Positions 12,249 through 18,498 of a DNA stretch of 20,576 nt are shown piece by piece. The stretch is from a virus (Duplodnaviria > Heunggongvirae > Uroviricota > Caudoviricetes), in IMG/VR virus record IMGVR_UViG_642973540_000001. One strand, given 5' to 3'. The notes under the pieces are model-generated. The model had not been told where the DNA came from. It was given only the letters and a program-made list of their open reading frames with translations, and did not search any database. Within the stretch, counting starts at the first letter, position 1; each line of letters starts with the position of its first letter. Made by a program: the position numbers and the translations under genes.

Positions 12249-12464
12249 ATGAAAATTTTCTTCTCTTCTCGTTCTGCTATGCGTTCTGCTACTTTCGGTA
12301 AAGCAACTGACAACGGCAAAGAAGCTGCAAAACGTTGGTCACGTGACTTTGCAAAGGTTATCCGCGCCAAACGTGTTGAAGTTGTTCAGCAGGTTAACAG
12401 CGTGACAGGTAAAGTAAAACCTGTTAAAGTGACTTTCCGTAAATCTCGCAAAGTGACGGCATAA
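12249..12464 (+). CDS. Small, very basic protein
   Basis: 71 aa, K/R-rich, leader CTTAAACAGGAATAAA. Confidence 0.75.
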   Translation: MKIFFSSRSAMRSATFGKATDNGKEAAKRWSRDFAKVIRAKRVEVVQQVNSVTGKVKPVKVTFRKSRKVTA

Positions 12465-12465
12465 A

Positions 12466-12801
12466 ATGACGCAATCAACAGTAAATTATCTTATGGGGGG
12501 CGGCCTTGCCGCTCTTACTATCGGGGGCTTTTACCTCTTCAACCTTATCAAAGAGGTTAAGCAGGTGGACAAAAATAAAGGGGCTGTAAAATCGTTTTTA
12601 AGCGGCCTTACAGCGGCGCAAACGTCCCTTTTGATGTCGTCTATTACTCACGGTCACAACTTTGCAGGGGACTTTATAGCGGCCTTGAATGATGCGCAAA
12701 AATATCAATATTCGGGCTTGCTTTCCGTAATTGGTTCAGGTACATTAAAGCCATATTACAGCGAGATTGTAGAATCTCATCGGGAAAAAGTAAGAGGTTA
12801 A
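12466..12801 (+). CDS. Protein with N-terminal membrane anchor
   Basis: 111 aa, YLMGGGLAALTIGGFYLFNLI. Confidence 0.7.
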   Translation: MTQSTVNYLMGGGLAALTIGGFYLFNLIKEVKQVDKNKGAVKSFLSGLTAAQTSLLMSSITHGHNFAGDFIAALNDAQKYQYSGLLSVIGSGTLKPYYSEIVESHREKVRG

Positions 12802-12803
12802 AA

Positions 12804-12938
12804 ATGATTGGTCTGGTTATCGTCTTAGGTTTTATCGGTCTGTTTGCGGCTCGCGTTATCGGTGAATGCTTAGGCTTAATCAGACCTTTCGAGGATGTCT
12901 TAGCGGAGCGTGAAACGCTCAAAAAGAAAAGGGCTTGA
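12804..12938 (+). CDS. 44-aa membrane protein (not in ORF track)
   Basis: GAGG RBS. Translated by hand as MIGLVIVLGFIGLFAARVIGECLGLIRPFEDVLAERETLKKKRA. Fills the gap between neighbours exactly. Confidence 0.7.
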   Translation: MIGLVIVLGFIGLFAARVIGECLGLIRPFEDVLAERETLKKKRA

Positions 12939-12940
12939 TA

Positions 12941-13174
12941 ATGGAAGGTTTAGCGGGTATTCTGTTTGTGTTGATGGTTGTCGTGGTGATTCTCTGGTTA
13001 GCGTTACTACCTGCAATCATTGCAAACAAGAAAGAAAGCACTAACAAGGGTTTTATAATTGGCTTAACAATCATCGGCCTGTTTTTCTTCCCTTGCTGGA
13101 TTATCGCGCTGATTTGGGCTATTGTTGATTCATCAGCTAAACCCCAAAAAGTGATTTTAGTCAAAGAAGTTTAA
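12941..13174 (+). CDS. imm: Superinfection immunity protein, T4 Imm-like
   Basis: 77 aa from ATG 12941. LLPAIIA...WIIALIWAI and C-terminal AKPQKVILVKE parallel T4 Imm as recalled (LP..IA, W....IW, QP.QVIII.E). Confidence 0.75.
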   Translation: MEGLAGILFVLMVVVVILWLALLPAIIANKKESTNKGFIIGLTIIGLFFFPCWIIALIWAIVDSSAKPQKVILVKEV

Positions 13175-13261
13175 AAAGTGCTTTACACGGTGTTTAACTT
13201 TCGATAGTATAAGCACCAGATAAAGAGCTTTTACAAACAACCCTTATAAAGGAATCAAATC
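13175..13261 (+). promoter_or_regulatory. Promoter-stem-loop-RBS cassette A2
   Basis: Near-identical to A1. TTTACA (13182)-N17-TAGTAT. Confidence 0.85.
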
Positions 13262-13849
13262 ATGCTATGTGTTCACGGCACTACCTTAGAAAACTTCAAA
13301 ATGATGATTGCCAACGAGGGCAAGCCGTCCGGTGCATGGAACGTGTCAGAATGTGATGCCGCCACCTATTTTTATCCGCTGGATAAAATCGCTAAAGCTG
13401 AATGTTTAGAGGCTGATGATTTTGATTCAGAATCAGAATATCAAGACGCTATTTTACAGGCCGCTAAACGTCACGCAAGGGGCAATGCTATGACAACAGC
13501 CGCAATTGCTGAACGTGACACAAAACTAATTGTTTTCCTTGCCGATGTCCCTGAGCACCTTTTAGAGGATGATTATTCGTGTGACAACATGGCCGATATT
13601 GCCTCTTTCATCCATGAAGATGATTTTAAGGTTGAAATGATTCAAAGAATCTGGCAATATAGCTTTTTCGGTATCTTTAGCCCTTATTGTGTTCAACCTG
13701 ATAACCCTTACATGATGTCAATGAGTTATCATCTTGAACAAATGGCAAGGGCTATTCAGAATTCAAACGCTTATCTTTATGACACTATTGAGAATTCATT
13801 AGATGAGAGTGAAGAGCAAAAAGGTTTAGAATTTTTGATAAACATCTAA
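13262..13849 (+). CDS. Hypothetical early protein, candidate ADP-ribosyltransferase-like fold
   Basis: 195 aa. N-terminal VHGTTLENFKMMIANEG, then TYFY. ORF is solid; fold is tentative. Confidence 0.75.
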   Translation: MLCVHGTTLENFKMMIANEGKPSGAWNVSECDAATYFYPLDKIAKAECLEADDFDSESEYQDAILQAAKRHARGNAMTTAAIAERDTKLIVFLADVPEHLLEDDYSCDNMADIASFIHEDDFKVEMIQRIWQYSFFGIFSPYCVQPDNPYMMSMSYHLEQMARAIQNSNAYLYDTIENSLDESEEQKGLEFLINI

Positions 13850-13927
13850 AAAATCGCTTTACAGGGGGTTATGGTTATGAGATTATAACCCCGTCGAAAC
13901 AAACAACCCTTATAAAGGAATCAAAAC
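13850..13927 (+). promoter_or_regulatory. Promoter-stem-loop-RBS cassette C2
   Basis: AAAATCGC-TTTACA (13858)-N17-GATTAT, GGGGTTAT/ATAACCCC inverted repeat. Confidence 0.85.
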
Positions 13928-15911: not shown

Positions 15912-16151
15912 GTGAATATCTTAAAAACTAACGATTTATGCCGCTTGATGCACAGTGATTTAGGTAAACCGTTCGTTTACTTTATTGAAGAGGGTAAAAC
16001 CTACTCTTACACGGTAAACCGTTTCGGGGCTTACGCTGCTAAAAACGGCCTTTTGATGAAGTCTAAAAAGTTACTTATCATCGCTGATGAAGATGAAAAG
16101 CCAACGATAGCCGTAAAAGTTTATTTCTACAAAAAGCCTAAAAACGTTTGA
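15912..16151 (+). CDS. Hypothetical early protein
   Basis: 79 aa, GTG start after AGGAATCAAAAAAC; stop lies inside the next TTGACA. Confidence 0.7.
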   Translation: MNILKTNDLCRLMHSDLGKPFVYFIEEGKTYSYTVNRFGAYAAKNGLLMKSKKLLIIADEDEKPTIAVKVYFYKKPKNV

Positions 16152-16219
16152 CAGTGAACAGTGAGAGGGGTTAAAATCCCCTCATCAACAAACAACCCCT
16201 TAAACAGGAATAAACAGAA
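16148..16219 (+). promoter_or_regulatory. Promoter-stem-loop-RBS cassette D2
   Basis: Near-identical to D1. Confidence 0.85.
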
Positions 16220-16471
16220 ATGGCTATCAACGTTACCGAAATTTCCAAAATCTCCATTCAGTCCGAAAGCGTTTATCTGTTGCACCGTGTTGTAACTGAC
16301 ATTTGGGACATCAAAAAAGTAATCCTTGACCAATGGGAAATTCAGGGGTTTAACCTTGAAAAGGGTAACTATCACATTGATTTTGAGTCGAAAGAGGCCG
16401 CTTTAGAACATTACCGCCAGATTGCAAATGGCATCATTGACAATCATCAAGCCGCTTTAAATTCAATCTAA
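16220..16471 (+). CDS. Hypothetical early protein
   Basis: 83 aa, last ORF of the island. Confidence 0.75.
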   Translation: MAINVTEISKISIQSESVYLLHRVVTDIWDIKKVILDQWEIQGFNLEKGNYHIDFESKEAALEHYRQIANGIIDNHQAALNSI

Positions 16472-16488
16472 TCAGACACTTAACAAAA

Positions 16489-16522
16489 AGCCCTTGACAT
16501 TCTACTTGACAGGGGCTAAAGT
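16489..16522 (+). promoter_or_regulatory. Promoter with inverted repeat facing the non-coding block
   Basis: TTGACA (16494)-N17-TAAAGT. AGCCCTTG (16489) pairs with CAGGGGCT (16510). Confidence 0.55.
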
Positions 16523-16616
16523 GTTTTAAGGGTTTTCTCTTAATCCACCCTTTCTATATTCTGTATTCCTCTCTTTAAAGACTCTTTACCATTCCTTTGA
16601 TTATCGTCTAATTGCC

Positions 16617-16914
16617 TTCTAAATGGTATTCTAAACCGTTAACACTGGCATAAAGTCCCGCTATAGTGATTCTTCTAAACAGTCTTCTAAACCGTTCCAC
16701 TCCTTCCCTAACAGTGGGAACCCCACAGGGAACCAGATTAAACAGCCTTCTATAACCCTTCTAAATCGCATTCTAAGCGGTTCTAAGTCTACCCCTTACG
16801 ATTGGGTTAGTAACCCTTCTAAGTCTCTTCTAAGAGCATTCTACGGCTTCAATTAATGATTGCTTTCACACTTGCTTTCTGTTAGTCTTCTAACCCCTTC
16901 TAAGCGTCTTCTAA
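16617..16914. repeat. Phased TTCTAA array
   Basis: 12 exact copies at 16617, 16629, 16673, 16685, 16759, 16771, 16781, 16817, 16828, 16888, 16898 and 16909; 10-12 bp apart within clusters. Confidence 0.9.
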
Positions 16915-17043
16915 GATGAATCACTGATTGCCTTATGTTCTGAATGTAGACTAAAAAGAGGCTTCAATCATTCGATTCAGAGTCTTCAAAGGTTGTCAAG
17001 ATACTGGATAATTTTACGCTATGGTTAGCCACTTTTACATTTC

Positions 17044-17426
17044 GTTAACAACTTTTTAACATCTCTGCAACATTCTATTCAGTCATCTGCATAACATCTT
17101 GACAACATTCTGTTAACATTTCTGTTACAACTCTTTAACGATTCATTAACACAATCCTGTTAAGAGTCTGTTACAACCTTGTTAAAAATTCTCGATACAA
17201 ATTAACATTTCGATAACATGGTGATTCCTCTTAAACGGCCTTTGTCAAGTCTAATAAATTCTCTTCAAACCCTTGACAATCCTGATTAGTTGAGTTGTTA
17301 AGACCCTGTTAAAATCCTGTTAAGATTGTTAAAGAGAATGGGTAAATGTTAACGGATTAGACGAATTGTTAAGAGCTTTAGAGAGTTGTTAAGAGCCTGT
17401 TAAGAGAATGTTGCAGATATGTTAAG
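17044..17426. repeat. Mirror-arranged, phased TTAACA / TGTTAA arrays
   Basis: AAC cores at 17047, 17058, 17069, 17093, 17104, 17115, 17137, 17148. GTTAA cores at 17297, 17308, 17319, 17328, 17348, 17368, 17388, 17399, 17421, plus a GTTGCA variant at 17410. Confidence 0.85.
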
Positions 17427-17648
17427 ATTTTGCAAAGGAACGGTTAACTTCTGAGAAGCGACCACTAAGCAGATATACAATTAATGTCAAAAATTGCATA
17501 AATCTTCAAAGTGACTACTCAATTAACAGTAAAGAACAGTGATTCAGATACCCTGTCAGATATGATGTGAACCCTTGATAGCACTGGTTTAGAGAAGTGG
17601 TACTGTTAATTTTTAAAAAATAGAAAATTATCTGAAAAGTTACTGACT

Positions 17649-17862
17649 GTTAAGGAAGGATGTTAAGACGTAGGTTAAGATTGATTTTAAGGCACTTCTC
17701 AGCCCTTCTCAGAGGACTTCTCAGCGAAGATAAGCAAACATATAGCTTACCAAGAGAAGCCCGTACAGAGGCTTATGAGTGGCTTCTCACGAATCCGTAC
17801 AGAAGACTTGTAGGAGATATGTTAAGAGGTGTGTTAAGGGGTCGGTTAAGAAAGGGGTTAAG
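17649..17862. repeat. GTTAAG array (12-bp period) and CTTCTCAG repeats
   Basis: GTTAAG at 17649, 17662, 17674 and at 17821, 17833, 17845, 17857. CTTCTCAG at 17695, 17705, 17717. Confidence 0.85.
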
Positions 17863-17873
17863 AAATTTTTTAG

Positions 17874-17901
17874 AAAAATAAAAAGCCTCTGAAAAGAGGC
17901 T
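17874..17901 (-). terminator. Intrinsic terminator for the leftward genes
   Basis: Minus strand AGCCTCT-TTTC-AGAGGCT-TTTTATTTTT. Confidence 0.85.
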
Positions 17902-17912
17902 CTAAAGAGGAA

Positions 17913-18104
17913 TCACAGTTTGCGGAGAGGTCTACCGTTAACCAACATGTTCAGATGGAATGTTCTCGCAACATCTTCAGGGAAATGTAAAGCAATCTTT
18001 CTCTGCATACGGTTGATGGTGTCTGCGTTGTACGGTAACCCTTTAAACTCTGATAAGACTTCTGTCAATTCAGCGTATTGTTCAGGTGTAGCGTTCTTGT
18101 ACAT
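17913..18104 (-). CDS. Hypothetical protein
   Basis: 63 aa from ATG 18104 (GGAGG RBS, TAATG overlap) rather than 18116. Confidence 0.7.
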   Translation of the reverse strand: MYKNATPEQYAELTEVLSEFKGLPYNADTINRMQRKIALHFPEDVARTFHLNMLVNGRPLRKL

Positions 18105-18337
18105 TATTCCTCCCAATATGACCAGTTCTCAACTGCGGTATCTTTAGGGTCATACAGACGCCACTCACGACGATACATGTTGAATGACATAGCTTGATAA
18201 CTATCGGTGACCGCTTCCATCTCACCTTTAGCGAGTTTCTTAGCAGTTTTACCGTCACATCCAGCCGACACTAAGAGGTTGGCAAAGGTACGACGAAACT
18301 GTTTCTTCCACTTGTTGTTCGTATAACGATGTTTCAT
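18104..18337 (-). CDS. Hypothetical basic protein
   Basis: 77 aa, GGAG RBS, ATGA overlap with the upstream small ORF. Confidence 0.75.
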   Translation of the reverse strand: MKHRYTNNKWKKQFRRTFANLLVSAGCDGKTAKKLAKGEMEAVTDSYQAMSFNMYRREWRLYDPKDTAVENWSYWEE

Positions 18338-18498
18338 GAGAATATTGCTCCAATGATTTTAGACAGACCATCGAGAAGATAACATGCAGCAAATGTGATA
18401 ACACCTGCCAAGTATGGGTTCATCAACTCGAAATGCGATACTACCAGAATCACTATCAAGGCTGCAACTACATTTTCAAAGAATTGTCCGAGCATCAT
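18334..18498 (-). CDS. 54-aa two-TM membrane protein (not in ORF track)
   Basis: Hand translation MMLGQFFENVVAALIVILVVSHFELMNPYLAGVITFAACYLLDGLSKIIGAIFS; AAGGA RBS; stop overlaps the next ATG. Confidence 0.7.
   Translation of the reverse strand: MMLGQFFENVVAALIVILVVSHFELMNPYLAGVITFAACYLLDGLSKIIGAIFS

Follow-up and report, generated by a model that had tools for sequence, protein, structure and literature searches.

Why should a phage keep a gene-free block filled with short, regularly spaced repeats between two converging groups of genes? The question is raised by positions 16617–17862 of a 20,576-nucleotide stretch of DNA from the IMG/VR virus record IMGVR_UViG_642973540_000001 (Caudoviricetes), which is referred to as the window throughout. 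An earlier annotation made from the letters alone (the sequence-only reading) had described these positions as a 1.25-kb non-coding block built of helically phased hexamer arrays and had proposed a DNA-wrapping nucleoprotein platform, serving as a replication origin, as a loading site for the small terminase or as an injection pause signal. Of these three, the packaging option agrees best with the evidence, since the physical ends of the genome lie within the block; the origin and the injection pause found no support. The block is probably the genome-end (concatemer-junction) region of the phage, in which phased protein-binding sites mark the ends and take part in their processing during packaging; that proteins bind to these sites is something we infer. 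The arrays most likely guide the cutting and packaging of the DNA.

A direct terminal repeat inside the convergent gap

The gap region is matched with 91–98% identity by 34 phage records, all of them Felix O1-like myoviruses of the genus Kolesnikvirus (among them phiEa104, SB18, SunLIRen, M7 and SPARTY), whose hosts are Erwinia, Salmonella, Hafnia and Cronobacter. The coordinates of the window match those of Kolesnikvirus records opened at the rIIA gene, and the window covers the initial 20.6 kb of an Erwinia phage of this genus. Since the rightward genes end at 16471 and the leftward genes at 17913, the block constitutes a convergent gap of 1.44 kb (16472–17912), flanked by small early genes that read rightward and by lysis and tail genes that read leftward. 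The non-coding nature of the block was confirmed (see below); its extent had been slightly under-called, the non-coding stretch comprising the entire gap.

Two of the matching records are opened inside the gap, and both carry the same sequence at either end (100% identical), as in a direct terminal repeat (DTR) of the T7 type. The exact repeat of SPARTY is 439 bp long and corresponds to positions 17028–17466 of the window, and that of M7 is 444 bp long and corresponds to 17025–17468. The termini of SPARTY were determined with PhageTerm and assigned to the class 'DTR like T7' (PMC8928762). For the Felix O1-like phage UAB_Phi87, Bal31 digestion and run-off sequencing revealed a DTR of 608 bp (PMC4837284), and short terminal repeats were also inferred in the Felix O1 paper (PMC3185647). 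Moreover, the Felixounavirus records I14.1 and Ro111lw contain exact DTRs of 581 and 613 bp, respectively, which map to positions 12771–13339 of Felix O1, within the 1.6-kb convergent gap (12306–13927) that is the counterpart of the gap described here.

Both boundaries of the repeat are marked by short sequence words. The left word consists of GCC, any base, C, about 8 nt and TTAACA. The right boundary element (plus strand, 17426–17480) comprises TTTTGCAAAG, about 25 nt and CCACT, followed by the end of the repeat and by AAGCAGATATACA. Records of the PhageTerm type all begin with GCC, any base and C, and finish immediately before AAGCAGATATACA. The DTRs of I14.1 and Ro111lw start with GCCCC and stop just before AAGCAGATATACA, the same words being present in the window, and AAGCAG directly follows the last base of the DTRs deposited for SPARTY, I14.1 and Ro111lw. 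When IMG/VR was scanned for the right word, 30 loci of the Ounavirinae type were retrieved, each with 16–24 TGTTA boxes upstream of the word. Where the left word was found in these loci, it is located 570–658 bp upstream of the right one, the distance in the Kolesnikvirus locus being 439 bp. The left word and the right one (in front of AAGCAGATATACA) are common to the window, the 30 IMG/VR loci and four deposited DTRs; the boundary words are conserved across the subfamily Ounavirinae.

Because the exact end repeats and the boundary words of the relatives map there, the block can be identified as the concatemer junction and the 439 bp at 17028–17466 as the terminal repeat. For the phage of the window itself the DTR is assigned by homology to the SPARTY and M7 records, with an identity of 95–98%. 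In genus and subfamily alike (UAB_Phi87, SPARTY, M7, I14.1 and Ro111lw), the DTR is the same element in the same genomic place, bordered by the same words. A packaged genome has one copy at either end, and concatemers and assemblies have one copy per junction. In the phiEa104 record (84.5 kb), which was used as a stand-in for the complete genome of the window's phage, 12 of the 32 copies of TGTTAAG are located within 0.7 kb at the junction, and the 84.5-kb genome contains no second cluster. The link to packaging proposed by the sequence-only reading is partly supported, while the terminal repeat inside the block and the two outward-facing ladders of boxes within it had been missed.

A further word, CAGATAT, is present at 17413, 17471 and 17558 (with GAGATAT at 17814), so that copies stand close to the right repeat boundary on both of its sides. 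In Felix O1-type genomes, a second CAGATAT follows the boundary word after a few bases. CAGATAT may be part of the cleavage signal.

Organization of the box arrays

All motif positions and steps listed by the sequence-only reading proved exact on recount. Altogether, about 45 boxes are distributed over 1.25 kb, about 33 of which are of the TGTTA type, and each terminal repeat contains about 25 boxes. The left-flank array (plus strand, 16617–16915) is composed of 12 exact copies of TTCTAA, mostly embedded in CTTCTAA, which share a single orientation and start at 16617, 16629, 16673, 16685, 16759, 16771, 16781, 16817, 16828, 16888, 16898 and 16909. The copies are grouped into five clusters with steps of 10–12 bp, the successive within-cluster steps being 12, 12, 12, 10, 11, 10 and 11 bp. 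Between this array and the terminal repeat lies a variable spacer of about 110 bp (16916–17027, mean conservation 69%), which occurs in two haplotype groups. Two such groups, including an indel of 12–24 bp, are apparent in the variable patches 16926–17012 and 17797–17815, and at either patch the window carries the less common form.

The terminal repeat harbors two opposed ladders of boxes, its TGTTA-type boxes being set on a lattice of about 10.3–11 bp. The leftward ladder (minus strand, 17045–17150; 98% conserved) begins 17 bp inside the left DTR boundary and consists of about 9–11 TGTTA-type boxes, mostly 11 bp apart, which on the plus strand read TTAACA, TGCAACA or AACA cores. AACA cores are located at 17047, 17058, 17069, 17093, 17104 and 17115, mostly with 11-bp steps, and on the minus strand the ladder contains chains of up to four boxes at 11 bp. 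In the center of the repeat (17158–17218), three rightward TGTTA boxes at 11-bp steps (17158, 17169 and 17180) are accompanied by two leftward boxes (17202–17218). The rightward ladder (plus strand, 17296–17425; 98% conserved) is formed by 10 TGTTA-type boxes with steps of 11, 11, 9, 20, 20, 20, 11, 11 and 11 bp; GTTAA is found at 17297, 17308, 17319, 17328, 17348, 17368, 17388, 17399 and 17421, and a GTTGCA variant at 17410. In the 20-bp units of this ladder TGTTAAGA alternates with a weaker TTAGA-type box. Within 17355–17394 the TTAGA-type box stands 9–11 bp from the strong TGTTAAGA box and resembles the reverse complement of the CTTCTAA box of the left flank. The left and right ladders together form imperfect inverted repeats of 46–47 nt, and each of them faces its own boundary. 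As a single strand, the DTR folds end to end into a long imperfect hairpin (z = -3.4).

The region to the right of the repeat contains three further groups, all on the plus strand. The right-flank boxes (17604–17680; 95% conserved), with GTTAA at 17605, 17649, 17662 and 17674 (the last steps being 13 and 12 bp), surround a conserved AT-rich tract (17606–17640). This tract is located about 140 bp to the right of the repeat, and the equivalent place is AT-rich in Felix O1-type junctions as well. Adjacent to these boxes are three CTTCTCAG boxes (17695–17724) with steps of 10 and 12 bp, which differ by one base from the CTTCTAAG box of the left flank and have the same orientation. Finally, four GTTAAG boxes (17820–17862) are positioned at 17821, 17833, 17845 and 17857, at exact 12-bp steps.

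Number and spacing of the boxes were compared with random controls. In dinucleotide-preserving shuffles, 1.5 copies of TTCTAA are expected (12 observed), 0.8 copies of TGTTAA (17 observed) and 0.65 copies of GTTAAG (14 observed), and for each of the three motifs none of 2000 shuffles reached the observed count. The best period of the TTCTAA array is 11.25 bp, which was equaled by 5 of 5000 random placements, and that of the GTTAA array at 17297–17421 is 10.25 bp, equaled by 8 of 5000. When all GTTAA sites of the plus strand were pooled, 124 of 5000 random placements were equally periodic. A motif-free Fourier scan gave power at 9.5–12.5 bp above the 99th percentile of the remaining window in 26 of the 49 sliding 150-nt segments of the block. 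The periodicity of about 10–11.5 bp, of the kind which the earlier annotation had proposed to check against shuffled controls, exceeds these controls.

Conservation of the box lattice

Among 10 Kolesnikvirus genomes the arrays are conserved to 95–98%, compared with 82% and 89% for the flanking coding sequences (CDSs). For the TTCTAA array the value is 97%, versus 82% for the adjoining CDS. The variable parts of the gap fall between the arrays, and of the GTTAAG boxes at 17820–17862 all four are kept in the 10 genomes while the intervening spacers vary.

A similar picture emerges from more distant relatives. In 22 Felix O1-type junctions, which are 72–88% identical to the reference junction (L033), the box columns of the alignment are 0.947 identical and the spacer columns of the arrays 0.860 (Mann-Whitney p = 6e-10). 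The box spacings pooled from these 22 diverged relatives are quantised, with 271 spacings of 11 bp, 70 of 20 bp, 39 of 33 bp, 36 of 9 bp and 21 of 22 bp, and close to the right boundary the window and the diverged Felix O1-type junctions have the same succession of steps. These pooled spacings support the proposal that the sites are helically phased on one face of the DNA, and show this phasing to be conserved across genera. The left-flank motif differs between genera, being CTTCTAA in the window and of the CTCTATA or CTTATAA type in Felix O1, so that the architecture, beyond the sequence alone, is kept. Plain slippage repeats without function can be ruled out, since the arrays are more conserved than the neighboring genes and the boxes more conserved than the spacers.

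Comparison with other phage genome ends

The short-repeat arrays of the T7 junction, the nearest known parallel, are named SRL and SRR and were reportedly described by Dunn and Studier in 1983. Re-examination of this junction revealed 13 copies of CCTAAAG in and beside the 160-bp DTR, two to the left, three inside and eight to the right of it, all in one orientation and with steps of 13 or 25–26 bp. The analogy to T7 drawn by the earlier annotation hence holds on T7 itself. In T7 as in the window, the exact DTR is short, and numerous copies of a short motif lie within it and next to it in a single orientation; both junctions carry at least 10 copies of a 6–7-bp motif (12 copies of TTCTAA and about 33 TGTTA-type boxes in the window, 13 copies of CCTAAAG in T7). 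In addition, an upstream promoter reads toward the junction in either phage, namely the annotated phiOR in T7 and a sigma-70-like site at 16494 in the window (16494–16522), which may parallel phiOR.

Despite these common features, the two junctions differ in several respects. The motifs are unrelated (TGTTA and CTTCTAA in the window, CCTAAAG in T7), and the pitch of 11, 9 or 20 bp follows the helix in the window, whereas T7 displays steps of 13 or 25–26 bp. The repeat of the window is filled by two outward-facing inverted ladders, a symmetry without counterpart in T7, and the window contains about 45 boxes over 1.25 kb as compared to about 13–19 in T7. Moreover, the phage of the window is a myovirus, and its large terminase possesses an N-terminal domain of the T4 type. 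Comparison of motifs and spacings yielded no sequence homology between the two sets of arrays. The likeness to the T7 arrays is architectural and not by descent.

Clusters of short boxes on either side of the terminase cut are also known from P1 pac and lambda cosB, where they are bound by the recognition subunit, assisted at cosB by a host DNA-bending protein. These sites comprise 3–7 boxes in about 160–200 bp and serve headful packaging or cohesive ends; unlike the junction of the window, they do not give rise to a duplicated exact terminal repeat.

For Felix O1-like phages, the reports on DTRs provide lengths and positions only (PMC4837284, PMC8928762). In the papers searched, we found no description of the phased ladders and the way they are inverted, of the flank arrays or of the conservation of these elements. 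Outside T7, little is understood of how short exact terminal repeats are recognized, cut and duplicated. The Felix O1 group constitutes a second, richer and strongly constrained system for DTR processing, which offers conserved boundary words, symmetric ladders, polar flank arrays and a cross-genus lattice of boxes.

A model for the formation of genome ends

The arrangement of the arrays suggests how the ends might be formed. A protein would bind to the boxes and assemble head-to-tail into a polymer on one face of the helix, and the resulting nucleoprotein complex would flag the junction for the terminase and place the cuts at both boundaries. The two-fold symmetry of the ladders would fit a single complex which nicks one strand at one boundary and the opposite strand at the other. 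Fill-in synthesis after nicking could then duplicate the repeat and provide each daughter genome with a full copy, as proposed for T7. The flank arrays, which each have one orientation (CTTCTAA on the left, GTTAAG on the right), would give the junction its polarity. The binding protein could be the recognition subunit of the phage or a host factor. Early small genes driven by host promoters are located at the right physical end and read toward that end; one may speculate that this end enters the cell first and is packaged last.

Several points weigh against this model or limit its precision. In the Erwinia phage Fifi318, the three genes that precede the large terminase gene match only families of unknown function, and no small-terminase family is among these matches. 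To our knowledge, the analogous arrays of T7 have no settled function, and the packaging role of the arrays of the window is a proposed one. The flank arrays have 12–13-bp steps and another motif, and may involve a further protein or function. Contigs assembled from four sequencing runs bridge the junction across 16000–18400 without starts or ends in this region, which is uninformative on the termini either way. Lastly, the M7 and SPARTY repeats differ by 2–3 nt at each boundary, which leaves the cut sites defined to within a few nucleotides.

Resemblance to ArcA operators

The TGTTA ladders bear a resemblance to the operators of the host regulator ArcA. The ArcA element is 10 bp long, with the sequence ATGTTAAAAA and the core TGTTA, and is arranged in direct repeats 11 bp center to center, extra elements being found at 11 or 22 bp (PMC3798270, PMC4173790). 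At putP, an element at a 12-bp step is not protected by ArcA (PMC3798270). As a tentative alternative, which could coexist with a role in packaging, the ladders may therefore be sites for phosphorylated ArcA (ArcA-P) or another regulator of the OmpR/PhoB family, acting as end-processing factor, as end cap or, with the ladders as a titrating decoy, as their target.

In the window, seven strict TGTTA pairs are spaced by exactly 11 bp and form chains of two to three boxes; all of them are located within the DTR and none elsewhere in the 20.6 kb. A looser core, modelled on published ArcA box variants, extends the 11-bp chains to four boxes. Inside the DTR the junction thus displays the TGTTA core in 11-bp direct repeats that characterizes ArcA sites, and its box variants TGTTGC, TGTAA and TGTGA are also frequent among 128 published ArcA boxes. 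Chains of at least three boxes are likewise common to the window and to ArcA-P operators of E. coli. Neither phiEa104 nor Felix O1 encodes a DNA-binding domain of the OmpR/PhoB type. Enterobacterales carry ArcA, and all hosts of the subfamily Ounavirinae known to us are Enterobacterales, which again would fit a host regulator of this kind.

However, the conserved 9- and 20-bp steps of the right ladder as well as the 12–13-bp steps of the flanks deviate from the spacing rule of ArcA. The boxes read TGTTAAGA or TGTTAAAA, and although their 3' half is partly A/T-rich, it is less so (GA, GAG) than in the ArcA element. Furthermore, host sites contain two to five elements at promoters, whereas the phage genome end carries about 25, arranged as two ladders of opposite orientation. 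The level of ArcA-P is low under aeration, and as phages of this group multiply well in aerated cultures, an essential role of ArcA is unlikely. A 5-bp core in combination with helical spacing could also reflect convergence with an unrelated phage protein. When IMG/VR was searched for runs of four TGTTA cores with a pitch of 11 bp, more than 118 matches were obtained, and the pattern was too unspecific to test the host range; among the matches listed, most are contigs outside the Ounavirinae set defined by the boundary word, some of them labelled GVMAG.

The more far-reaching view that the DTR is a purpose-built operator array of the ArcA type, with about 25 boxes per repeat and two repeats per genome, so that ArcA coats the genome ends, appears rather unlikely. 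Such a coat could act as a host factor in end formation, or as a decoy which drains ArcA-P and thereby de-represses respiration in hosts at low oxygen. A literature search for a link between Felix O1-like terminal repeats and ArcA found none. If binding of ArcA were true, it would constitute a new phage-host link, with a global redox regulator at the ends of a virus chromosome.

Replication origin and DNA entry

A replication origin in or at the block, with the phased boxes as iterons and the AT-rich tract at 17606–17640 as unwinding element, is improbable. The proposal draws on dense, phased and strongly conserved boxes which adjoin a conserved AT-rich tract, and on the long imperfect hairpin of the single-stranded DTR; moreover, we know of no origin mapped in this phage group. 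However, the block contains no DnaA boxes, and its roughly 45 boxes of 5–7 bp are unlike the usual three to six iterons of 17–22 bp. Neither an initiator nor a replication gene adjoins the block, its neighbors being small early open reading frames (ORFs) and lysis genes. In addition, the coincidence of the block with measured termini already explains its uniqueness and conservation. Apart from the AT-rich tract, the features of an iteron-type origin were thus not found, and the suggestion of an origin made by the sequence-only reading is left without specific support.

That the arrays act at or after DNA entry, as an injection pause of the T5 kind or as sites for a protein that shields incoming ends against host exonuclease, is very improbable: they do lie no more than a few hundred bp from either physical end, with host-promoter-driven small early genes reading toward the right end, but the 439-bp repeat has no gene or conserved ORF, unlike the T5 terminal repeat, which is about 10 kb long and carries the pre-early genes, two-step injection is not known in this phage group, and symmetrical arrays at both ends fit end formation better than a one-sided pause. 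The injection pause of the earlier annotation accordingly gained no support.

Other features of the gap

Only one ORF of at least 40 amino acids is present in the gap (17660–17881). Stop codons or frameshifts interrupt it in 6 of the 10 relatives that were aligned, for which reason the block is regarded as non-coding. Since it also overlaps the box arrays, this ORF was ruled out as a gene. GenBank lists CDSs over this interval in M7 (gp001 and gp002), vEam_W_28, Coenus and PMBT37, which are probably spurious because the frame is broken in these 6 of 10 relatives and is composed of GTTAAG boxes. A scan of the block with Rfam revealed no RNA family near any threshold.

The predicted sigma-70-like promoter on the plus strand (16494–16522) is composed of TTGACA, a 17-nt spacer and TAAAGT, with 10 of 12 consensus matches. 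It is embedded in a hairpin-like element and points to the right into the repeat block, where no ORF follows. Across 10 Kolesnikvirus genomes the promoter is invariant except for position 16503, which differs in one of them. In Felix O1, terminator-like hairpins occupy the equivalent place. At the opposite side of the gap, a predicted intrinsic terminator on the minus strand (17882–17903) closes the leftward block of lysis and tail genes.

Consequences for genome records

The junction is spanned without interruption in 22 of the 34 matching Kolesnikvirus records (e.g. phiEa104 and SB18). These genomes were opened elsewhere, often at rIIA, so that their records show the true ends collapsed within an 'intergenic' gap that bears no annotation. 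This also applies to the record of the window, which was opened at rIIA and in which the repeat is collapsed and unannotated. The assignment of 17028–17466 as terminal repeat therefore corrects the genome maps of phages that are used or studied for biocontrol of fire blight and Salmonella.

In the announcement of Erwinia phage Fifi318, bp 1 was taken from the rearranged genome provided by PhageTerm. In the corresponding record (PQ051114.1), bp 1 lies past the tRNA array and upstream of the terminase operon, and the ends carry no terminal repeat; the true repeat is located at about 76.3–76.8 kb of PQ051114.1. Fifi318 was therefore ruled out as evidence against the mapped ends. Finally, PP892526.1 (Escherichia phage vB_EcoM_I14.1) is listed in the GenBank taxonomy as a Tequintavirus (T5-like), whereas its sequence and the accompanying paper identify it as a Felixounavirus; the label was probably swapped with that of the co-assembled phage I14.

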